Source: a virus (Duplodnaviria; Caudoviricetes). From it: 34,173 nt of DNA. A model generated the notes under the pieces. It had not been told where the DNA came from. It saw only the letters and a program-made list of their open reading frames with translations, and ran no database searches. The stretch spans positions 1 to 34,173 of IMG/VR virus record IMGVR_UViG_3300011338_000730. One strand, given 5' to 3'. A program made the translations under genes and the position numbers. Below are positions 7,441-33,182 of the stretch, piece by piece (position 1 is the stretch's first letter; each line of letters begins with the position of its first letter).

Positions 7441-9627
7441 ATGAGAAAAAGACCTACTATTTCACTTTGTTTAATTGCTAAGAATGAGATCCATAACATT
7501 AAGCCCTTGTTTGATTCTATTGAAGGGTGTTTTGACGAGATTATCTTTGTTGATACTGGATCGAATGACGGGACACCTGATTTTGCAAAAGCTTTAGGTG
7601 CTAAGGTATATCATTTTGATTGGGTAAATGATTTCTCAAAAGCTCGTCAATTCGCATTCGATCAAGCTACTTGTGACTATATGTTTTGGTGCGACCTTGA
7701 TGATTCACTAAGTCATAAAGATGAGTTTATCAAGTGGCGCGATAATGTGATGAGTTTGGGTGATTATTGGATAGCAAACTATCATTACGCATACGACTTT
7801 GAGAAGGATATGCCGTTATGTACCTTTCCAAGAGAACGAGTAATCAAAAATGATAAGAGTAAATTTAAATGGAAGTACTTTGTACATGAAGGATTAATGC
7901 CGATTGATGGGCATGAGATTAGTCCACAATTTATTTCCACGTGGAACATTGTTCATCGTAGATCCCCAAAAGACTTTGAAGCTGATAGAAGTAGGAATCT
8001 AAATCTATTTGATGTTAACCAAGATAAACTTGATTCAAGAATGATGTTTTATTGGGGCAAGGAATTATATGAGAATGGAAAGATTAAAGAATGCATTCCC
8101 AAGCTTGCCCAGGCGTTTGAGCAATTAGATTTAGCGATTCATGATAGAGTGCTTTGCATTCAATATTTATGTTATGCATATTTAAAAGAAGGTGATTTTA
8201 ATAGAGCGTTTCAACTAGCTCAAGTGGGTATTAATCTTGATGCTAATAGAGCTGAGTTTCATATTGCCATGGGTGATGCTAAAATAGGAATGAAAGACTA
8301 TATTAATGCAATTCCATTCATGCACGCGGCAATGCACTGTAAAAAGAATGCTAATGTCGGTAGTCAGTTTGTATTTTCAAACATTGATGCTTACGGAACA
8401 TATCCGATTATTAATTTAGTGAAGCTTTACTTTCATACGAATCAACACGAAGAGGCTTATCGTTTTGCGATGACGTATAAACATCTTCTCGCTGATAATG
8501 AGGAGTTTAATAACATATTTAAGGAACTTGAGAGAATTCGTGAGTTAACAACCTTTGATTGGAAAGATGCAAAATATTGCGACGATATTATCATTTCATG
8601 TTTCCATAATGCCTATGAGTGGGATGGGAATATCTACCGTAACCAAGGTATAGGAGGTTCAGAGACGGCAGAGATTGAGCTTGCGGAATGGATGGCTAAG
8701 TTGACTAGCCGTAAAGTAATAATCTTTAATAGCGTACCTACTGAGCGGCACATTAATGGCGTAATCTATCGACCTATTGAGCTGATTAATCGATATGTGA
8801 AAGAGAATAAGCCTTGGCTTCATATCGCTTGGAGACATAACCAAAAGATTACCGATGCATTAACTATTGTTCATTCCCATGATTTACAAACTATAGGCAT
8901 TGAGAATTTATCTAACTTCGACAAGGTTGCAGTACTAACGCCATGGCATCGTGATTTTATGAATGCTACACAAGGTGTTCCTTTTGATAAGATGTTTTTA
9001 ACTAGAAATGGAATTGTACCCTCTCGTTTTGAAGCTAAAACAACAACAAAAGACCCATATTCGTTTGGGTTTTCAAGCTCGCCAGATAGGGGATTGGATC
9101 GAGCGATGTTAGTTTTAGATAAGGTGAGAGAGGTATACCCACAAATTACTCTTAAGGTGTTCTATGGAATTGAACATCTACCCAAGTATGGGCATCAAGC
9201 TTTGCATGATAAGCTTAAAGAAATGATGGCAGAGAGAAAAGAGTGGGTAACTTATTACGGGAAGACTGAACAAAAACAAATGATGAAACATTTTGAGAGC
9301 ATTTCATACGTTGTTCAACCGTCTAACTTTTTAGAAACTTTTGGCATCTCAGTACTTGAGCAAGTTTGTTCAGGTATTTACCCAATATTTAGACTTATTG
9401 GTGGGATAGCAGATACTCTGCAGCCTTTTGTTGATAAGGGTTTTGCATCTTTGGTTGATAGTGATTGTGTAACTGAGGAAGAATTTCAAAAATATATTGA
9501 TGAGGTTCTTTTAGTACTTAAAGAAAATAGAGCGGCAAACGTGAAAGTAGACCCTAGTCAATATTCATGGCAAAATGTTGCTAAAGAGTGGTTGGATGAG
9601 GTTAATAAACTAAAGGGGAATGCATGA
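7441..9627 (+). CDS. Glycosyltransferase: GT2 domain + TPR repeats + GT-B (GT4-like) domain
   Basis: N-term ISLCLIAKNE, VDTGSNDGT, DFSKARQ, DLDD, VHE (GT2); central TPR-like helices (FYWGKELY, RAEFH); C-term GIGGSET, SSPDRGL, ETFGISVLE (GT4-like). Confidence 0.92.
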   Translation: MRKRPTISLCLIAKNEIHNIKPLFDSIEGCFDEIIFVDTGSNDGTPDFAKALGAKVYHFDWVNDFSKARQFAFDQATCDYMFWCDLDDSLSHKDEFIKWRDNVMSLGDYWIANYHYAYDFEKDMPLCTFPRERVIKNDKSKFKWKYFVHEGLMPIDGHEISPQFISTWNIVHRRSPKDFEADRSRNLNLFDVNQDKLDSRMMFYWGKELYENGKIKECIPKLAQAFEQLDLAIHDRVLCIQYLCYAYLKEGDFNRAFQLAQVGINLDANRAEFHIAMGDAKIGMKDYINAIPFMHAAMHCKKNANVGSQFVFSNIDAYGTYPIINLVKLYFHTNQHEEAYRFAMTYKHLLADNEEFNNIFKELERIRELTTFDWKDAKYCDDIIISCFHNAYEWDGNIYRNQGIGGSETAEIELAEWMAKLTSRKVIIFNSVPTERHINGVIYRPIELINRYVKENKPWLHIAWRHNQKITDALTIVHSHDLQTIGIENLSNFDKVAVLTPWHRDFMNATQGVPFDKMFLTRNGIVPSRFEAKTTTKDPYSFGFSSSPDRGLDRAMLVLDKVREVYPQITLKVFYGIEHLPKYGHQALHDKLKEMMAERKEWVTYYGKTEQKQMMKHFESISYVVQPSNFLETFGISVLEQVCSGIYPIFRLIGGIADTLQPFVDKGFASLVDSDCVTEEEFQKYIDEVLLVLKENRAANVKVDPSQYSWQNVAKEWLDEVNKLKGNA

Positions 9628-15885: not shown

Positions 15886-17936
15886 TGGCTACAAAAAAAG
15901 TAACCCCTAAAAAAGTTGAGCCGGACTATTCAGAGTTTGAGGCCATAGCTGATGAGCCGGATTATTCAGAGTTTGAAGCGATGGCCGATGATGATAATAT
16001 ATTAATGCAATCAGTTAAAGATACTTATACAGGACTCAAGACGGTTGGTGGTTGGGGTTTAGAGGGTTTAAAGTATGTGGCTGAAAAAAAAGAAAAGTAT
16101 TTAGATGCGCCATTTAGACAAACGATTAGCGATACGATTGAAGGCAAGCCAATTACTGGTTTAATTTCTGGGTTAAAGCAAATAGGAGGCGACCCAAAAC
16201 AAGCACCTACAGGCGCGCAGATAGCTTCTCAATTGGGGGTTAAAGACCAAACTCCTTTAGTTAATCCAGAAGGAACTACAGCCGGACTTTTAAAAGAGTA
16301 TAACATTCCGTTACCCACTAAACAAAATATTGCGGGCCTAGGGGTGGAGCTTGCGGCTGATCCATTATTCTTTGGTAAGCCAATAACAGGCGCAATTAAA
16401 ACGGTTGGTGGTATAACTAAGGGATTAATTAAAGGGGCCTCAAAAGTAGGCGACCTTGCTTTAGGTGAAGGTGTTATTTCAAGACCTGTAGAGGCTACGG
16501 GTAGAATCTTTAATGCCGCTATTGGTGAGGGATTTAACCCAATAAAAACTGAATATGCAGATAGAATGATTAATACAGCCAAAAGTATTGGAATACCCGA
16601 GGAAGAATTGTCGGCGGCTACTAAGTACGGTCCTGAAAGTTTATTATCTCAAACTGAACGGGCAACAATGCAATCACCGGCTGGTAAAGATATAGTAAAA
16701 ACACACCAACAAACAAATAGTAAAATTACAAAAGCCATTTATGAAGAAATTGATGATATTGCGCCACCAACAAAAAAATCTGAGGTTGGTGAGATCATTA
16801 GATACACGGTAAAAGATGCTCAAGATAAATTATTAAAAGATGTAGAAGGCGCTACGATGGCACAAGCTAGTAAAAAAGCGCCGTTAAGTAGTTTAAAAAT
16901 AACAGAGCCTAAAAAACCTACTGTTTTTGAAGAAATGAAAGCCTGGATAACAAATAAACCAATTAAAAAGGAGTTACCAAAAAGACCTTATTTAGAATTA
17001 GACACAAAAGCCACAACTCCTTTGCAGCAAAGCTTAAGTGCTTCTAAAAAGCTTATTAATGATGAGCTAGTAAGTGGAAGAAGTACGCTTGCTGCGGGTG
17101 AAATTTCAGAATTAGACAAGGTGGTAAAAATAGCCGAAAAAGCACAAAACTATGACGACGCAGTAAAAGCGTTAAAACAAATTGGCAAGGTAGCTTTTGA
17201 TGATATTCCAAAGGCTACAAGACTAGGTCAAGTCTCAGCACCTAAAGAAGAAGTAATGAAACTATACTTTGGACTACAAGATGCAATTATAGGCACCATA
17301 AGAAGTAAAATATCGCCTGAACTAGCTGATAGTGTTGTAAAAAACAATATTATGATGACAAGTTTTTTCAGAGATAGAAACTTGTTTATGGATGTTTTAG
17401 AAAATGCAAAAGTAGATGGCGAAGCTGTTTTCAATAAACTTGTTGGGCCTGGTAAGTCTCAAAATATAAAGGCATTAAAAAACATACTCCCTGACGAAAC
17501 ATTTAATGAGTTATCATCTACCTATATTAATTCACTTATTAAGAAAAATGCCACGGGCGAATTACTTTATGCTTCGACGTTAAAAAATATAGAATCTAAA
17601 AAAGATTTTCTTTTGAACTTTATACCAGAGAAAAAATTAGAAAAATTAATAAATACTTTAGAGCTAGGAGTAAGACAGGGGGCTGATAAACTTAACACTT
17701 CTGGAACTCAGATTTCTGAAATGATTAACAAAGGACTTGCCGGCCTACTTACAGCCGGAAGAACTCGCTCGGGTTATGAGATGTTAAAAAAACGGGCAGC
17801 AAAAGAGAGTGGCGCTGCTACTCCCATAATTGGAAAGGGTGGTTATATAGGACCACAGGCACCAAGTAGGTTTGAAAATAGCGTTAGAGCGGCGGGATTA
17901 ATAAACAGGTATAATCAACAAAAGGAGAGAGAATAA
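15885..17936 (+). CDS. Large putative ejection / internal virion protein
   Basis: 683 aa; YLDAPFR and GLGVELAADPL motifs typical of podovirus internal proteins. Confidence 0.6.
   Translation: MATKKVTPKKVEPDYSEFEAIADEPDYSEFEAMADDDNILMQSVKDTYTGLKTVGGWGLEGLKYVAEKKEKYLDAPFRQTISDTIEGKPITGLISGLKQIGGDPKQAPTGAQIASQLGVKDQTPLVNPEGTTAGLLKEYNIPLPTKQNIAGLGVELAADPLFFGKPITGAIKTVGGITKGLIKGASKVGDLALGEGVISRPVEATGRIFNAAIGEGFNPIKTEYADRMINTAKSIGIPEEELSAATKYGPESLLSQTERATMQSPAGKDIVKTHQQTNSKITKAIYEEIDDIAPPTKKSEVGEIIRYTVKDAQDKLLKDVEGATMAQASKKAPLSSLKITEPKKPTVFEEMKAWITNKPIKKELPKRPYLELDTKATTPLQQSLSASKKLINDELVSGRSTLAAGEISELDKVVKIAEKAQNYDDAVKALKQIGKVAFDDIPKATRLGQVSAPKEEVMKLYFGLQDAIIGTIRSKISPELADSVVKNNIMMTSFFRDRNLFMDVLENAKVDGEAVFNKLVGPGKSQNIKALKNILPDETFNELSSTYINSLIKKNATGELLYASTLKNIESKKDFLLNFIPEKKLEKLINTLELGVRQGADKLNTSGTQISEMINKGLAGLLTAGRTRSGYEMLKKRAAKESGAATPIIGKGGYIGPQAPSRFENSVRAAGLINRYNQQKERE
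15918..15989 (+). repeat. 36-bp in-frame tandem duplication (EPDYSEFEA[I/M]AD x2)
   Basis: gagccggactattcagagtttgag... repeated at 15954. Confidence 0.85.
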
Positions 17937-17937
17937 A

Positions 17938-18315
17938 ATGGAACTATCAGAACTAATTAAAGAGAGAAGACTAGCGGCGGCAAAGGCAGCACCAAAAGAT
18001 GAGGAGACTGTTTTTGAGAAGGTGTCGAGTAAATATAAAGAAAAGACACCTGAATTAACTAAAGAAGCGTCGATGAAAAAAACAAAAATTAAGCCGGATG
18101 TAACAGACGGTGAATTAGATGCAATTTCAGCGAGACAAAAAGCTAAAATGTCAGACTATCCTGAAGACATGAAAATGAAACCTAAGCGTTTCAGAGATAT
18201 TGATGATCGAGTTATTCAAAGATTAAAAGAGAGAGAAGAAGAAGCGGATATTCTCAGAGGTAAGGGAGTACCGGAGTGGAAGATTCAACAAAGATTAGAG
18301 ATGCGTGAAGAGTAG
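17938..18315 (+). CDS. Charged hypothetical protein
   Basis: 125-aa Lys/Glu-rich ORF. Confidence 0.65.
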   Translation: MELSELIKERRLAAAKAAPKDEETVFEKVSSKYKEKTPELTKEASMKKTKIKPDVTDGELDAISARQKAKMSDYPEDMKMKPKRFRDIDDRVIQRLKEREEEADILRGKGVPEWKIQQRLEMREE

Positions 18316-21007: not shown

Positions 21008-21124
21008 TTAATACTCTCTTATGGGTATTTTATTAAAATCACGAAAAGACATTTCTCCAATAGCCGCTTTTGTTTCCTCGTCGATCATAGCTTCTATTTT
21101 TTCGATTAATTGTTGCTTGTTCAT
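21008..21124 (-). CDS. Small hypothetical protein, 38 aa
   Basis: MNKQQLIEKIEAMID...; ATGA overlap with SPFH stop. Confidence 0.45.
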   Translation of the reverse strand: MNKQQLIEKIEAMIDEETKAAIGEMSFRDFNKIPIREY

Positions 21125-21897
21125 TTTGTAGCATCTTTTAAATCGATCATTGGCATTGAGCCATTACCGAGAATTATTTTAGGTAAAGCGCCATCCCATT
21201 TCTGAGCAATTTCATAACTTATCAAAGACTTATTAGTAGAAAGTGCTTGTGATTTAATTCGCATAGATTCCGCATCTGCTTTTGCAGTTAAAACACTTTG
21301 TTCAGCTTCTTCTCTTACTCTTACTGTAATATTTTTTGATTCTTGTGCTTGTTGAACAGCAACAACTTTTGCCTCAACTGCTTTTTCATATTCATCAGCA
21401 AAATCTAAGTTCACAAAATCAAGTCTAGTCACATTAATAAATCTTGATTTAAGAGCATCTTTCAGTGCTCGTTCTGTAGCTTGTTTAGCAGCTTCTCTTT
21501 TAGAGACTAAATCATCAGCAGCGTATTGCCCGATAGAGTCTTTTAAACTTCCAAGTACGGATGGGTTAATTAACTTGTCGGCGTAATTATTTCCAAACTG
21601 AATGTACAAAGAATCAATTTTAATTGGGTCTGGGTAATAAGTTACAGCATACTTAATTGAAACGCTCTGCGTGTCTTTTGTGAATGCCGTTGTCTCACCT
21701 TCTACTATTTCTTCTCTCACTGATAACTCACTAATGTTTGAAGAGATTGGATTATAGAAATAAATACCGGGAGTCATAGGCTCACCTTCTACCTTACCCC
21801 ACACTTTTTTCAAACCACGATGCCCCTCATCGATTTGTTCAATACCACAAGCAGACATTGATAACGCTAAAACTAATAATCCAATAATATTTTTCAT
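21121..21897 (-). CDS. SPFH / prohibitin (band 7) domain lipoprotein
   Basis: Lipobox LSMSAC; GHRG, PGIYFYNP, YEKAVEAKVVAVQQA, KWDGALP. Confidence 0.9.
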   Translation of the reverse strand: MKNIIGLLVLALSMSACGIEQIDEGHRGLKKVWGKVEGEPMTPGIYFYNPISSNISELSVREEIVEGETTAFTKDTQSVSIKYAVTYYPDPIKIDSLYIQFGNNYADKLINPSVLGSLKDSIGQYAADDLVSKREAAKQATERALKDALKSRFINVTRLDFVNLDFADEYEKAVEAKVVAVQQAQESKNITVRVREEAEQSVLTAKADAESMRIKSQALSTNKSLISYEIAQKWDGALPKIILGNGSMPMIDLKDATK

Positions 21898-22498: not shown

Positions 22499-22897
22499 TC
22501 AGATAGTGGTGTAAGCATTTTGGTCGCATTCTTCACAAATTAAAAAAGAACCATAATTAGAATCTCTTTTTATTGTTAATTTAGTTTTTCTATCACCACA
22601 CCTTGCACATGATTTCTCTATTACTGATTGTTTTTTTTCTCTTTCGTTTCTATTCATCATATAAAACGCATCTGATAAATCGACTCGTTTCGGTTGAGTA
22701 TTTAATTGTTTATATATATTATTTAAATGTAATAATTTATTATATAATAAATTGGTGTCTTCGTCGGTCATTTTTGTGTTTAACTCATAATTATCTAAAG
22801 CTTTCTGCCATGGATCGTCTGGTAAATTGCCATAAAACCCAACCGCACCAATAGCATATTCGCGTGCCATATTTTCCATAAACTCACTAAACTTCAT
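22499..22897 (-). CDS. Hypothetical protein with C-terminal zinc finger
   Basis: CARC...CEEC; ATGA overlap with helicase. Confidence 0.65.
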   Translation of the reverse strand: MKFSEFMENMAREYAIGAVGFYGNLPDDPWQKALDNYELNTKMTDEDTNLLYNKLLHLNNIYKQLNTQPKRVDLSDAFYMMNRNEREKKQSVIEKSCARCGDRKTKLTIKRDSNYGSFLICEECDQNAYTTI

Positions 22898-23742
22898 TTT
22901 TTTACTTCCCCGTATCGACCGTTTGTATATCTAAATATAATAGGTTTATTTATATTTATTCCGCGCTTTCTAATTTTTTTAAAAACTATTTCTCTATTGA
23001 GCCAATCGTATTTACCGGAATCAATGTCTTCTTTTTTAGGTCTGTTCATCAAGATGACGTTTGATGCTTCCTGAACCGCTGTTGATGAGCCCTTTATATC
23101 AAACTCACTCTCAACTCTGCCTCCGTCTGTTTTCTTTGGATGAACAACAAGAAGGGTGTGAACTGGTATATGTTTGGCGGCTATTACAAAAGCATGGACT
23201 GCTTGGTCCATCTCAACAAGTTGATCGCGTGCATTTTTTACATCTAAAAAAAAGTTAAGATTATCTAACACTGCTATTTTAACGCCATACCTTTGCTGAG
23301 CGAATGCTATGCGCGTTATAATATCGTCTACTGAAACTCTGTTTTCATATGTAGCAAAGATAATTTTTTCATCTAAAATTGGCGAGTATTTTTCGTATAG
23401 TTTTTGAACGAATTCTAGTGAGTAATTTTCGTGCTCGTTTAGGTCAATTCCTTCCCATTGAGAAATGACTCTTTTTAAAAAATCATGCGGCCCTGTTTCA
23501 ATAGAAGCAACAAACACTTTGACATCATGCTTAACTAAGTGAGCAACTAATGACGCAAGCCATTGTGTTTTCCCACATCCAGTTGGCGCACAAAACAGCG
23601 AGAGTTCGTTTAGCCTCATACCCCCCAGGTACTCTCCGAATTGCGGAAAGAACGGCGTTTTTGTCGCTGTAGAGGGTATTAATAATTGTTCTATCGTTTC
23701 GATTAAGATTTCTTTGTCTGTTTTTGTTGTTCCGTCACTCAT
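22894..23742 (-). CDS. SF4 (DnaB/T7 gp4-like) replicative helicase, RecA-like domain only
   Basis: Walker A APTGCGKT, SIE, VLDNL, LVVHPKK, DIKGSS, KKIR; start moved to ATG 23742. Confidence 0.88.
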   Translation of the reverse strand: MSDGTTKTDKEILIETIEQLLIPSTATKTPFFPQFGEYLGGMRLNELSLFCAPTGCGKTQWLASLVAHLVKHDVKVFVASIETGPHDFLKRVISQWEGIDLNEHENYSLEFVQKLYEKYSPILDEKIIFATYENRVSVDDIITRIAFAQQRYGVKIAVLDNLNFFLDVKNARDQLVEMDQAVHAFVIAAKHIPVHTLLVVHPKKTDGGRVESEFDIKGSSTAVQEASNVILMNRPKKEDIDSGKYDWLNREIVFKKIRKRGININKPIIFRYTNGRYGEVKK

Positions 23743-24586
23743 AGTAAATTTCCTGTTCACTTGGTGGCTTGAATTTCTGTGAACTCTTGTTTGTCGCTTC
23801 GTCTAAAATTTTTGTTGAGTTCTCTGGTTCTAATAACCAATCAAAATTTGCCTTCCAGCCGCTTTTAGAATCTCCGGTATAAAACTTCTCTTTTGAAATG
23901 AAATCCACAGCAAGAGAAAACTCCTCTTCGTTGAGTGGGTTTTCTTTTCTTAGTTGAATAAGTTTTAATAAACGCTTTGTACTGCCAGCTAATTTTATTT
24001 CACTTACCTTCGCCAGCTTCTCTCCGCTTTTTTCATTCCAAAGTTTAACACACACCCACAAAGCGTCAGCGTCACTTTTCGATGAATCTGCTGTATGTGT
24101 ATTGTTTTTTGTATTTGAGGAAGAGAAAGAGTAAGAGTAAGAGGCTGAATTCCGTTCGTCGGGAGTCGTCGGGAGTCGTCGGGAGTCGTCGGTTGATCGT
24201 CGGGAGTCGTCGGGTGATCGTCGGGAGTCGTCGGTTGATCGTCGGGAGTCGTCGGTTGACGACCCAGAAGCATTTATTATTTTTGCTCCTTTTCTTCCCG
24301 CGTTACTGCGCTGCTTTATCCAAGCAAATTGATCATGAGTGCCGGCTAAATAAACGCCGCTTTCTTGTTTGATGGCCAACCCACATTCAATTAAAGCATC
24401 ATTTAGTTTTCTTTTTTGCCAAACCTCAAAAGGTATACAGCCGTCGTTTTTTAAAAAATATTCTTGAGCCACAACCCAAGCTAAAACAACGTCTCCTAAT
24501 GCTTGACTATAATTCCCGATTTTAACAACTAAATCTAAAAAGCGACTATCTTTAAAAAGCGAGTCTTCAATATTTAATCTAGCCAT
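23735..24586 (-). CDS. Replication initiator (lambda O-like architecture)
   Basis: N-terminal domain ending RSNAGRKG, low-complexity repeat linker, C-terminal GWKANFDWLL motif; upstream of helicase. Confidence 0.8.
   Translation of the reverse strand: MARLNIEDSLFKDSRFLDLVVKIGNYSQALGDVVLAWVVAQEYFLKNDGCIPFEVWQKRKLNDALIECGLAIKQESGVYLAGTHDQFAWIKQRSNAGRKGAKIINASGSSTDDSRRSTDDSRRSPDDSRRSTDDSRRLPTTPDERNSASYSYSFSSSNTKNNTHTADSSKSDADALWVCVKLWNEKSGEKLAKVSEIKLAGSTKRLLKLIQLRKENPLNEEEFSLAVDFISKEKFYTGDSKSGWKANFDWLLEPENSTKILDEATNKSSQKFKPPSEQEIYYE
24156..24260. repeat. Tandem 10/11-bp repeats inside the initiator gene (candidate iterons / origin)
   Basis: GTCGGGAGTC and GTCGGTTGATC units, about 10 in total; the 21-bp period encodes STDDSRR. 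Confidence 0.85.
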
Positions 24587-24599
24587 CAACCCCCCGGTT

Positions 24600-24723
24600 A
24601 AAAAAAAAGGGACAGTGTTACTAGCACCATCCCTTGGAATCTCACCTAACCTAAGAAACGGTAGCTAGGTGTGAAAAACATTTAATTTATTGTGGTGTTT
24701 CTTATCTGCTAGTAACAGATGAG
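24600..24723 (-). promoter_or_regulatory. Multi-hairpin leader of the initiator gene ending in a terminator, with complementary loops
   Basis: TGTTACTAGCA (24616-26) is the reverse complement of TGCTAGTAACA (24707-17), each centred on a hairpin loop; U-tract on the minus strand just before the RBS. Confidence 0.7.
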
Positions 24724-24819: not shown

Positions 24820-25330
24820 TGATGATATCCATTTAAAAAATGGCTAGTATTATTAACATCTTTAAACCAATTAAGCATGTACATTTCAATATGACGCATG
24901 CCTTATTGACCCCTTTCTACATGGAACCGCCATTCTTCCTACTGACTGACTAAGGCAGGCTTGGTGTGCTACTTTAGTAATCAGGTTCGAATGAATATTT
25001 TGAATGTCTTTATCTTTATTTGATTGAGCTCTTCGTTACCTGACTTGTTGTAACGGCCAAAGCTAAGCGAATACTTTGGTTCATCTACTTTTAAATAGAT
25101 GCGTCTTGGTGGAGAACTGAATCAATAACCTACTCCCGGATTCCTAAGCATCATGCTCCGGCTCCTAGAGACTCTCTCAAATAAATTTAAAACAATTGCA
25201 CAGCCGACGGCGCTATTTCATAGATAGTTTAGGTTGCGGTTCCGAGTTGATTCTAACCAAGGCCAATACTGCTACTGACGTCCCTACTATTTATAATGCC
25301 GCCTATTGGGTGTTATTAACATAATCCCGT
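24820..25330 (-). ncRNA. Large structured non-coding RNA candidate (strand and ends tentative)
   Basis: No ORF in the track; at least 9 stems plus long-range pairings (GGAACCGC 24923-30 with GCGGTTCC 25236-43); recurring AGUAG on the minus strand. Confidence 0.6.
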
Positions 25331-25432
25331 ATCGTGTTTTACGACTTAACGATAAATTTTCGGAGTATTAAGAATTTAATGCTTGAACTGTGAACTCGTT
25401 AAGAGTTAAGAAGTGATTAATTCTAAATAATC

Positions 25433-25491
25433 AACCCTTGTTTAACGAAGCTTAGCCGAAAGGTAAAGTAGAAACTAGACAAGGGTTTTTT
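25433..25491 (+). terminator. Long hairpin with GAAA-capped inner stem and U-tract
   Basis: AACCCTTGTTTA / TAGACAAGGGTT + TTTT; inner CC-GAAA-GG. Confidence 0.65.
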
Positions 25492-25746
25492 AATTTAAAG
25501 AGGACTGGCACCCACTCGATAACCAGCCCCCCACCTGAAGGAAAAAACTAAGCTGTCTGGAACTTAGTTAATATAAGTTTACATTGTTTAGTTAAATTAT
25601 TAAATGAATCAGTTTAAAAATAGTGCTTTTAATTTCTGTAAAACAAGTTATTAAAGTTTCAAAAGCCTCATGTTGTATATTTTATGCTCGGCTGACGGGT
25701 TTCGAGCTTCCCGTCTGCTTTAACGCTATCCTTGAAGGGATTGAAT

Positions 25747-26283
25747 ATGTCTGACGAAAATAAATCACTGTTATCACTAGCTCTTAATCTTGAGCGACTA
25801 TTAATCGAAAATGAAGGCGAGTTGAATGATGAGATCGAAGCACTTATCAAAGTTAACGAAACCGATCTCGCTACCAAGATTGATTCTTATTACTACATAA
25901 TCGAGCGGATGAAGAATGCTGCCGCATACTACAAAGCCGAAGCAGAGAAGCTAAATAACATAAAGAAGTCTTGTGAGGCCTTAGAAGACCGTTTAAAGAC
26001 GCGTTTAAAAGAGACCATGCAATTTACCAACAGAACTGAGGTCGCAGGTTTAAGGCATCGTTTTGTGCTTACTGATAGCCAACCTAAATTAATCATCACT
26101 GATGAGAGTAAAATTCCCAACGAATATAAGATAATTAAGACTGAAATAGATAAATCAGCGCTGCGTGTTGCATTGGTTCACGGTGTGAAAACTGAAGGCG
26201 CTAGATTAGAGCAAACTTGCGCCCTCAGAAGTTTTAAGGTTAATCCGGCATCCAAAAAATCCGAATTAACAGAAGGAAAGTAA
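25747..26283 (+). CDS. Siphovirus Gp157-family protein
   Basis: KIDSY, LK.RLKETM, I.DESKIPNEY, IDK.AL, GARL motifs; start moved to ATG 25747. Confidence 0.85.
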   Translation: MSDENKSLLSLALNLERLLIENEGELNDEIEALIKVNETDLATKIDSYYYIIERMKNAAAYYKAEAEKLNNIKKSCEALEDRLKTRLKETMQFTNRTEVAGLRHRFVLTDSQPKLIITDESKIPNEYKIIKTEIDKSALRVALVHGVKTEGARLEQTCALRSFKVNPASKKSELTEGK

Positions 26284-29231: not shown

Positions 29232-30152
29232 ATGTGGAAAGTGTCTTTTTTATTATTAATTAGTATATGCGCAAATGCTTCTGAACATGAAGACATAATT
29301 AGAGCAATGAAAAGGCCTAGAGCCCAAAACGAGGTAATGACTAAACACAAAAGTGCAGTCACTATTTTACTAAAAGACTTACTTAAAAAAGAAGAACTAA
29401 AAGAATTAGACAAACAAAAACTAGACGAAACCCAAACAATAATCCCAAGTCCAAAGCCACATTCTTCTCTTTTTGATCGAGTATCAAACTCATACGCGAA
29501 AAAAGCCTACGCGTTTGCCCCCGCTACACCTACTCCATTACCCACTTTCGTTAGTTTAAAATCAAATGACACTCCTGTTATAACGCAGTGGAACGGAACG
29601 TGCACAGCACATGCATCAATAGCTGCTATGGAAAACATACTAAAAGCGTCAAACAATCTTTCAGAGCGTCACCATTGGTCTACTTATGAGCAATATTCCT
29701 CTCACGAGTCCGTAAAAGCTGCACAGTCAAAACCAATTGAACAGGAATACGTTTGGCCACATAATTCCATCACACCAAAACTAGAACTAGGAAAAGGCGA
29801 AAGATTTAAGTTATCTAAAGTTGAATACATTGGTTACAACCCCTCACGCTTGCAAGAACACTTATCTAAAGGCCTACCGGCTATCGTCGCGATGACGGTC
29901 CCCAAAGACCTAGGCGCATGTCTCCCCGTCGTTCGTGAGGCCTCAGAAGTAGATACAAACGCAGGTCATGCAATGGCAGTCGTTGGCTACGGACTAGACT
30001 CTTCTCTTCAATCTAAAGGCTATTTCACTGTTAAAAACTCGTGGGGTGAAAACTGTCACGCGAAAGGTTATGCATCTATTCCCTATAACCAATGCTTAAA
30101 GCCTAACGCTTATTGCGCTTTCTGGCTTTTTACGTCAGTAGAAAAACTATAA
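29232..30152 (+). CDS. Papain-like cysteine peptidase (C1) with signal peptide
   Basis: QWNGTCTAHA (Gln/Cys), GHAMAVVGY (His), VKNSWG (Asn); N-term MWKVSFLLLISICANA. Confidence 0.9.
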   Translation: MWKVSFLLLISICANASEHEDIIRAMKRPRAQNEVMTKHKSAVTILLKDLLKKEELKELDKQKLDETQTIIPSPKPHSSLFDRVSNSYAKKAYAFAPATPTPLPTFVSLKSNDTPVITQWNGTCTAHASIAAMENILKASNNLSERHHWSTYEQYSSHESVKAAQSKPIEQEYVWPHNSITPKLELGKGERFKLSKVEYIGYNPSRLQEHLSKGLPAIVAMTVPKDLGACLPVVREASEVDTNAGHAMAVVGYGLDSSLQSKGYFTVKNSWGENCHAKGYASIPYNQCLKPNAYCAFWLFTSVEKL

Positions 30153-31423: not shown

Positions 31424-31774
31424 ATGAAACCAGGACCAAAACAGTCTGAATTTCGTGTTGAAAAAGAACATAAAAAAACGTTCAGAGATAACTTAAAAAG
31501 ACTAAGTAGAGATTTAGCTCTGCATCAACGATTTAAGCTTGAAATAGAGCGGCTAGATGAGATGCAAAAAGAAGCTAGAAACGCTGGCGAATATAACAAC
31601 GAACTAAACATTATTAAAACTAAGATGGCAGCTTACTTTGAGCTGATGCCGTATCTTTTACCTAAGCTTGCAGCTATTCAAATTGATCAAACCAAGCAAA
31701 CGACAGTTACAGCGGAAGAAGCTGAAGCAACGTTGCAATTAATGATTGCTGATCAAGTTAACTTAATAAAATGA
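31424..31774 (+). CDS. terS: Putative terminase small subunit
   Basis: 116 aa directly upstream of and coupled to the terminase ATPase; ELMPYLLPKL motif. Confidence 0.6.
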   Translation: MKPGPKQSEFRVEKEHKKTFRDNLKRLSRDLALHQRFKLEIERLDEMQKEARNAGEYNNELNIIKTKMAAYFELMPYLLPKLAAIQIDQTKQTTVTAEEAEATLQLMIADQVNLIK

Positions 31775-32421
31775 GTAGAGAATTAAAACTTGCACAAATA
31801 GCAGCGATTTACAGAAAAAGCCTTTATCACTTTTGCAAGTACGGACTTGGTATGAAAGACATTAATATAAAGACTCACGGAGGTGTTATCAGAAACCTTG
31901 AGAGCCAAGCTACAAGGCAATTAATAGTTCTCCCACGCGGAAGTCTCAAAAGCTCGTTAGCTGTTACTGGTTACTGTATTTGGAGATTAATTAGAAACCC
32001 AAATGATAGAATACTAATTGACTCAGAAGTTTACGAGAATAGTAAAAACTTTATACGAGAAATTAAAGCTTATATGCAAAGCCAACACTTGATCGACGTA
32101 TTTGGTGATTTTAAAGGTGAAATATGGAGTGAGGGCGAAATTACTATTAAGCAAAGGACTAAGCCATATAAAGAAGCATCGGTAACAGCGGGAGGCGTGA
32201 ATACAGTAAAGGTCGGCCAGCATTATAGTTGCATCGTGTCAGACGACTTAAATAGTGGAAATAATTCAGGAACTCCAGAAGCTAGGGCTAAGGTTTTGCA
32301 GCATTACAGACTAAACGATGCAATTCTAGACCCGGGGGGAACGTATGTCGTCATCGGCACTAGATATAGTGACGATGACGTAATTGGAAACATACTTAAA
32401 AACGAAATAGGAATAAAATGA
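31771..32421 (+). CDS. terL: Terminase large subunit, N-terminal ATPase domain only
   Basis: Walker A-like PRGSLKS, G.H...IVSDD (Walker B), VIGTRY..DD (coupling motif); stops at 216 aa. Confidence 0.88.
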   Translation: MSRELKLAQIAAIYRKSLYHFCKYGLGMKDINIKTHGGVIRNLESQATRQLIVLPRGSLKSSLAVTGYCIWRLIRNPNDRILIDSEVYENSKNFIREIKAYMQSQHLIDVFGDFKGEIWSEGEITIKQRTKPYKEASVTAGGVNTVKVGQHYSCIVSDDLNSGNNSGTPEARAKVLQHYRLNDAILDPGGTYVVIGTRYSDDDVIGNILKNEIGIK

Positions 32422-33182
32422 CAAACGTAACAGTAGTTTTGACTCATCACTTAAACGAAAACGACAAGTACTTACAGCTAGCTATAAACGGCATAGCTTG
32501 GCAGATGAGGCATAACTTTAATATGCACTGTTACATAGTAAGTAGTGCAGTTAATAGCCCAAGCGTTACATTTAATAATAGCTTTACGCTTATACATAAA
32601 CCCGAACTCTACAACGCTACAGTAAAGTTTCAGCATGTTTACGAGTTAACTAAAGCTAACACTGATAAATACCTTTTACACTCCGATGACGTAATTATGT
32701 CGGCCAAGTGTCTAGGTAATATGGTAATGGCATCACAAAGCGTTAACATTACATTTATTCAAAACCCTTTATGCAATGGTGACGTACCAAGTAAGTATAT
32801 CACTCCGTTATGTATACAACACGAAGGCAAGCTTGAGCTTGTGCCTCAAACAATGGACTACGATTGGTCAGAGACTAGGCTCACAGGAATACACTCACCG
32901 CCTCCTAGGGACATGCTACTATGTCCTTTCCCGTTTGTGAGTTTCTATTGCACACTGATTGATAAAGATCTTTTTGAGCGAATAGGGGGCTTGGACGAAA
33001 GGTTAGACTATAAAAACAATGACGTAGACTTTTGCTTTAGAGCAGCTAAGCAAAACGTACCAAGTATGGTTAATTTTGGCGCGTTAGCTTTACATTTTGG
33101 CAGTAAAACGCTTAACATTGTTAAGACTAAAGAAGACGACGAGTTAGCCGATAAGATTTTTAAAGAGAAGCATAATTTATAG
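32418..33182 (+). CDS. Glycosyltransferase family 2
   Basis: LLHSDD, FYCTLI, IGGLDE, DVDFCFRA, HFGSKT motifs. Confidence 0.85.
   Translation: MTNVTVVLTHHLNENDKYLQLAINGIAWQMRHNFNMHCYIVSSAVNSPSVTFNNSFTLIHKPELYNATVKFQHVYELTKANTDKYLLHSDDVIMSAKCLGNMVMASQSVNITFIQNPLCNGDVPSKYITPLCIQHEGKLELVPQTMDYDWSETRLTGIHSPPPRDMLLCPFPFVSFYCTLIDKDLFERIGGLDERLDYKNNDVDFCFRAAKQNVPSMVNFGALALHFGSKTLNIVKTKEDDELADKIFKEKHNL

Follow-up and report, generated by a model that had tools for sequence, protein, structure and literature searches.

A probable structured non-coding RNA with a predicted antisense partner in the early region of a podovirus-like phage, possibly an RNA-primed replication origin

The window analysed here (the whole stretch of 34,173 nucleotides, our record G000, a 34-kb podovirus-like phage genome that is 90% complete) carries in its early region a structured, so far uncatalogued RNA for which an antisense partner is predicted, and we consider it likely that this is a real element. 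The long RNA, hereafter RNA A, corresponds to a conserved block free of open reading frames at 24921-25363 (minus strand; its 5′ end may lie further to the right), whose minus strand probably gives rise to a folded transcript of, in our model, 440-580 bases. Our preferred reading, to which we would give a probability of roughly 0.42, is by analogy: RNA A may be a pre-primer like RNA II of ColE1 and the MRB plasmids, controlled by an RNA I-like antisense regulator. We found no description of the element in the main texts of the open-access literature.

Results

The element lies in a gap of 1.15 kb. To its left are the leftward genes of an O-like replication initiator (23735-24589, minus strand; PHROGs, Atlas and a repeat search, with internal iteron repeats at about 24155-24265) and a DnaB-like helicase (22894-23760, minus strand; PHROGs), and to its right is a rightward Gam-like/SSB operon, whose Gam-like gene (Sipho_Gp157; 25741-26283, plus strand) is the right neighbour and served as bait for relatives. 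An A+T-rich segment at 25568-25655 (strand unassigned), common to the window and to the relatives G001, G003 and L415 discussed below, likely contains divergent early promoters. Behind this shared segment we predict, from the alignment and from hairpins seen by eye, a small RNA at 25500-25580 (minus strand) made of a hairpin, an anti-Shine-Dalgarno-like U-rich stretch (UUU(A/U)UCCUUC) and a terminator-like hairpin. The motif is kept in all four aligned phages (the window, L001 3700-3790, L415 2745-2820 and L251 10460-10545) and is a candidate trans-acting translational repressor.

A scan of 45 window proteins revealed neither an integrase nor a repressor, and ARAGORN found no tRNA genes in the window. 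Elsewhere in the window the terminase large subunit appears to be in separate pieces (31771-33182 and 58-300), a two-domain glycosyltransferase (7441-9627) stands among the virion genes, and there are an SPFH/Band 7 protein (21121-21897) and a papain-family peptidase (29232-30152); the terminase of G001 (L248 11461-13233) looks, by eye, intein-bearing. All four RNA-library runs examined gave short contigs on the element region (depth 3-7, two of them ending at 25284), which are shallow, unstranded and no proof of transcription, one of the runs covering other genes too.

A sequence-only reading of this DNA had proposed a structured non-coding RNA of about 500 nt at 24820-25330. The element is there, with the conserved unit shifted to 24921-25363. 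In G001 (83% complete; reached through its Gam-like protein, locus L001) the block has 95.3% identity over 443 nt, against 64-83% in the 13 other segments of that genome that match the window. Between the two copies there are 15 substitutions and a single 6-nt deletion (25126-25131), and no open frame is kept in both on any strand. The edges are sharp, and the flanking sequences of the window and G001 show no alignment; to the left of the block, a gene for a plain HNH/NinG-like protein of 135 aa is present in G001 and absent from the window.

Collecting homologs, as had been proposed from the sequence, yielded this single one. Rfam gave three unrelated chance matches at E<=5 and none at the gathering score, whether to GOLLD, ROOL, group I and II introns or any other family. 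Among the matches listed from DNA-pattern searches of viral contigs (three patterns that covered 54, 24 and 57 of 64 parts of the contig set, plus a fourth pattern; verified by nhmmer/blastn) G001 was the only homolog, a metagenome pattern search gave no matches, a genome pattern search gave one chance match and no homolog, and blastn against phages and plasmids gave no match to RNA A. Only G001 among 44 Gam-related loci has the block, and our models R1 and R2 matched none of 49 other related records (the 50 records searched all come from the 44 Gam-related and 70 capsid-related loci). Of the runs in Logan/SRA, 13 contain at least half of the words. Other known classes were also considered and rejected. 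For group I and II introns, tmRNA, RNase P and HDV-like ribozymes, for which the core motifs of each were the criteria of comparison, there was no Rfam or ARAGORN match, resemblances seen by eye came without the core pairs, and no gene is interrupted; for HEARO/omega RNA, no IscB/IsrB-type nuclease follows the element either in G001, with its plain HNH/NinG-like neighbour, or in the window.

Compared with shuffles, the block folds at z = -1.88 on the minus strand and -0.39 on the plus strand, and the G001 copy at -3.41 and -0.58. For most 150-nt windows within the block the z-score does not reach significance (best -2.32), and the interval first proposed (24820-25330), which had been expected to fold better than shuffled controls, does so modestly (z -2.52 minus, -1.77 plus). 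When the 15 substitutions are placed on the minus-strand model, two form a compensatory pair (A-U to U-A at 25290/25220, in domain I), in three cases a wobble preserves the pair, four create additional pairs in G001 and the other six are not in helices. The resulting consensus energy was matched by only 3/400 and 8/400 random substitution sets on the minus strand, against 54/400 and 142/400 on the plus strand, where it is not significant. The covariation in RNA A rests on two sequences, and the fold model was derived from those same two; since a single compensatory pair alone arises in 59/400 random sets, we take the evidence for conservation of the fold as moderate, and much of the 95% identity can be due to a recent exchange of DNA.

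With this qualification, the model supports a large multi-domain, pseudoknotted non-coding RNA on the minus strand with two multi-way junctions. Domain I (25206-25303, minus strand) would contain a junction, closed by a long irregular helix (25303-25284/25227-25206), that holds a 7-bp hairpin and the 5′ strand of a pseudoknot. This hairpin (25279-25273/25268-25262), kept by the two wobble changes at 25266 and 25267, replaces on the minus strand a stem that had been proposed at 25263-25309. Domain II (25015-25185, minus strand; wobble-kept change at 25028) would be closed by helices of 9 and 7 bp around a junction with three hairpins (25101-25034), already recognised by the sequence-only reading and kept in G001, and the stem 25161-25136, which it had also listed. 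Domain III (24942-24984, minus strand) is a predicted hairpin whose tip has 5/5 pairs in G001 and 2/5 in the window; it competes with a pairing of ACCTGA and TCAGGT that had been suggested earlier and is kept in G001 (8/8 pairs on the minus strand). There is also a long-range pairing, a predicted pseudoknot when domain I is formed, whose 5′ strand (25230-25243, minus strand) pairs with 24932-24923 and 24941-24938 in both copies. Its main part, GGAACCGC/GCGGTTCC, has 9/10 pairs in the window and 10/10 in G001, plus a 4-bp extension (14 pairs in G001). The 3′ strand (24923-24941, minus strand), at the block boundary, carries a purine-rich GUAGG(A/U)AG motif that recurs at the 3′ ends of the elements of L415 and G013 described below, and the end of the block coincides with the end of this helix.

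All the complementarities and hairpin arms from which that first reading was built are present where it had placed them, and conservation separates them. An 8-bp match between a bulge (25236-25243) and a loop (24923-24930) is kept in G001 and is the one at the block end, but the TGCCTTA/TAAGGCA hairpin to which the loop was assigned has its TGCCTTA arm (24899-24905) outside the conserved block, as is the stem at 24875-24901. In the nested helix 25105-25132/25230-25261, G001 has GAATCAA/TTGATTC intact (7/7) and CTTGGT/ACCAAG with one pair lost, and AACCTA/TAGGTT falls to 1/6 because of the 6-nt deletion. The six AGUAG repeats of the minus strand do exist (as CTACT), although G001 keeps only four of them; six in 443 nt, with 35 in the whole window, compares with about 0.45 expected, a probability of ca. 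0.015 by our own arithmetic after allowing for all 5-mers and both strands.

A very different account of these data would be a recent swap by recombination, possibly aided by the HNH nuclease adjacent to the block in G001, in which the DNA has a role of its own or none and the fold is incidental. The existence of only two copies, the modest z-scores and the crossover of modules at the 34-nt motif (with a third left flank in run X20, see below) would agree with it. The substitutions nevertheless fit the fold in a strand-specific way, the boundary falls at a helix end and a covarying sister RNA is found in the same slot, so that we regard a mere swap as quite improbable.

At the right end of the block there is a 34-nt motif with GUAAAAC (25330-25363, strand unassigned), identical in the window, G001 and L415, at which left and right modules cross over and which is a candidate promoter of the antisense RNA. 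The latter is predicted at 25364-25497 (plus strand), with a length of about 130 nt, stem-loops and an intrinsic terminator (about 25431-25497; ΔG -21.8). The segment folds on the plus strand at z = -3.9 in the window, -6.0 in G001 and -2.7 in L415, and the alignment indicates that the structure of the terminator is kept while its sequence changes. Besides the contigs already mentioned, one of run X20 at window 25330-25450 joins a third left flank (79 loose letters) to the 34-nt motif, which suggests more cassette types.

The same layout, a short stem-loop RNA with an intrinsic terminator opposite a long ORF-free RNA, is predicted in all five long elements (window, G001, L415, G013 and G006). 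An opposite-strand terminator of -20.5 to -26 kcal/mol stands 126-174 nt from GTTTTAC in each, delimiting predicted antisense RNAs of 108-156 nt; of 73 control GTTTTAC sites in 13 family records, eight had a terminator of <=-10 kcal/mol and two of <=-20 kcal/mol. The five elements amount to four sequence-distinct units, as G001 and L415 share one. G006 was chosen by its gap and motif, not by its terminator, and its unit folds as 108 nt with three stem-loops.

The sense/antisense arrangement is also that of a type I toxin-antitoxin pair, in which the long RNA would be the folded mRNA of a 22-aa ORF (25084-25016) silenced by the antisense RNA, and the sole change within that ORF is synonymous. 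Yet this region hardly varies in any case, the peptide has no strong hydrophobic character and, in the frame that is open in L415, the sister element of G013 lacks a start codon; we give this very little credence.

What lies in the slot to the left of the motif varies among relatives. G003, with a capsid protein 87% identical, is without the block and has behind the same A+T-rich segment a replication-initiation gene, on the other strand. At the start of this gene (L251 11180-11230) we noticed an opposite-strand terminator-like hairpin with a GAAA loop, which suggests antisense control there too. L415 (Gam 56% identical; the locus covers 6.4 kb only) shares the ca. 130 nt to the right of the motif with G001 only, as an antisense unit of about 160 nt including the motif, and has to the left a different non-coding segment of ca. 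410 nt with no detectable similarity to RNA A. A homolog of this segment (score 65 vs. 27.5±3.8) immediately precedes an O-like gene in G013, and the two segments make up a second uncatalogued RNA family of about 400 nt in the same slot (L415 2170-2610 and G013 17860-18240, the latter L529 1360-1740, both minus strand), without Rfam match. There are five two-sided and three one-sided changes in its 22 hand-set pairs, and the segments fold no better than shuffles (z -1.1 and -0.6). Protein similarity between their frames was rejected, because, in a count by eye, codon positions 1-2 hold most of the mismatches, and because G013 lacks a start codon.

We likewise rejected homology between RNA A and the segment of L415: the similarity is not above shuffles, a model match covers only the first 67 nt, and model R3, made from the L415/G013 core, matches only its source and does not detect RNA A. 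Grouping these RNAs therefore rests on position, two short motifs and layout. The elements of the window, L415 and G013 open with GUAAAAC and close 338-393 nt later with GUAGG(A/U)AG, and a search with the pattern GTAAAAC-330/360-GTAGGWAG retrieved G013 only. G006 has a further, unrelated gap of about 600 nt starting with the same motif (L253 5723-6339, plus strand), a purine-rich, gene-free region rich in GAAA loops that folds at z = -4.0 (-2.2 for the last 511 nt). Other gene-free gaps of family genomes fold at z from +1.4 to -4.1 and match neither of the two RNAs nor Rfam; the regions L513 4242-5022 (G017), L518 9943-10405 (G020), L511 7510-7889 (G016) and L493 657-1581 (G042) are mutually unrelated by nhmmer, and three of them fold at z = -2.4 to -4.1.

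It is conceivable, with odds somewhat short of even, that we are looking at a set of unrelated, uncatalogued pseudoknotted phage RNAs of about 400 nt behind a shared antisense module, replacing a protein initiator or standing beside one, i.e., RNA-primed origins swapped as cassettes at the 34-nt motif. The gene that follows the element also varies, being O-like in the window and G013, HNH in G001, and a methylase in L415, with a 73-aa ORF as the fourth kind. This bears on another explanation, in which the element is a long 5′ leader, an attenuator or antiterminator under antisense control, through which expression of the leftward early operon (in the window, O and DnaB) is set. In all five cases the element heads an operon on the same strand, lying 43 nt from the start of the HNH gene in G001 and ca. 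70 nt from that of the methylase gene in L415, the RNA of G001 does not end in a terminator of its own, and a strong terminator stands just ahead of the O-like gene start in the window. That terminator (24635-24607) belongs to a candidate attenuator in the leader of the O-like gene (24598-24723, minus strand), where its loop is complementary over 11/11 nt to the hairpin 24723-24701. Against this, the downstream genes differ, the window and G013 have separate leaders of 170-330 nt with hairpins of their own, close O homologs in G009 have no such element upstream, and the pairing leaves the ribosome-binding site uncovered. Overall, we find the leader explanation rather unlikely.

Neither the adjacent antisense RNA nor the swapping of the slot with other RNAs or a Rep gene had been part of the sequence-only reading, and together they speak for a unit in which a sense/antisense pair controls replication rather than for a nanocage RNA acting alone. 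An ornate RNA that works by itself in trans, whether a GOLLD/ROOL-like scaffold or a decoy for a host-defence protein, with an independent small RNA next door, would suit the size, the two multi-way junctions and the long-range pairings. It would also suit the optional presence of RNA A (absent from G003 and from the 49 other records searched with two models) and its preservation whatever the downstream gene. The Rfam result, the missing tRNA array and the want of an own terminator in G001 speak against it, as do the recurrence of the antisense layout with unrelated RNAs and a search of both the window and the G001 genome, in which no target-like complementarity of >13 nt to RNA A was found elsewhere. 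We therefore hold a stand-alone function to be improbable.

Discussion

Under the origin reading, the folded minus-strand RNA of 440-580 bases would act as the RNA II-like pre-primer of a protein-independent origin, and the opposite-strand RNA of ca. 130 bases as an RNA I-like antisense brake for copy control, with the two RNAs presumably overlapping. The purine-rich 3′ end might form an R-loop, host enzymes would do the priming, and the origin would be used in a plasmid-like prophage state, the O/DnaB module of the window phage being a second, lytic replicon. Some phages, such as P1, do keep separate plasmid and lytic replicons.

We prefer this pre-primer with antisense copy control on account of the ColE1/MRB-like layout, the precedents for RNA origins and the results for initiators in G001 and G006. 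No initiator was found among 21 early proteins scanned of G001 (further small ORFs of <=99 aa were only listed) or among 19 of G006, and neither genome has a homolog of the window O; a 206-aa protein of G006 is without assignment. PHROGs missed the O gene of G013, so an initiator can go unseen and its absence from G001 and G006 is soft evidence.

Several observations count against the origin reading. Immediately downstream of the element there is an O-like initiator gene both in the window, where it contains iterons, and in G013, and for RNA A a single homolog was found. Overlap of the two RNAs needs the long one to start to the right of 25497, where no sigma-70-like promoter was found, and a terminator-like hairpin at about 25500-25535 is in the path of the long RNA. 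RNA A also has no long G-tract, whereas RNA II of ColE1 carries one.

RNA-initiated replicons are rare, the examples described being ColE1, the MRB plasmids and some mycobacteriophage prophages (PMC3035462, PMC7157519). If the origin reading is true, these phages would be an independent set, in which a single exchangeable slot takes at least two long RNAs unrelated to each other, beside a Rep-gene alternative; the minimal needs of an RNA primer and the divergence of antisense specificity would become testable, and many gene-free “ornate RNA” candidates of phage early regions would gain a concrete job. Should it prove wrong, there would still be a structured RNA, not catalogued so far, and its antisense regulator.

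Among known systems, GOLLD and ROOL are likewise large, multi-junction, pseudoknotted, phage-borne and optional, with a mean of 581 nt for ROOL and many GOLLD over 800 nt in the figures given for them (bioRxiv 10.1101/2024.12.08.627333, PMC5737381). RNA A is shorter, has no model match and has a predicted antisense partner. Nor does it lie in a tRNA island, the sole tRNA of G001 being 5.4 kb away; the suggestion that it is a member of such a class or a new one thus survives as a large pseudoknotted RNA without Rfam family, not as GOLLD or ROOL. The ARRPOF plasmid, as described, can do without its rep gene, a gene-free region then serving for replication (PMC5737381), and it offers a pseudoknotted replication-linked RNA in an element that also carries a rep gene (PMC5737381, PMC12990946); that RNA is about 255 nt and plasmid-borne, and its model has no match here. 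Closer in habitat, some extrachromosomal mycobacteriophage prophages (Alma, LadyBird, RedRock) are reported to have a non-coding RNA origin of 400-500 bp in place of the RepA of sister phages (PMC7157519). They resemble our case in having an RNA region in the role of a Rep gene and no integrase, and differ in that here there is no adjacent parABS cassette, no match in the phage collection and an unrelated phage group.

ColE1 has, like the elements described here, a long folded RNA with a multi-stem antisense RNA at its 5′ end (predicted, at ca. 110-150 nt, in our case), and loops that vary between relatives (PMC3035462, PMC7157519), although here there is no Rfam match of any family and no long G-tract, and two of the carriers have O-like genes. 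For the MRB replicons of the pB1067 family, an ORF-free unit of ca. 500 bp has been described in which a long RNA of about 465 nt is opposed by a short stem-loop RNA with promoter and terminator (PMC3035462). Our elements, known from sequence alone, differ from them in being on phages, in having no plasmid sequence match and in the predicted length of the antisense RNA (108-156 nt vs. 68 in MRB). The pattern of sharing is nevertheless alike, L415 having in common with G001 only the antisense unit and the motif, just as pES213 is described as sharing only a 110-bp RNA I core with other MRB origins (PMC3035462).
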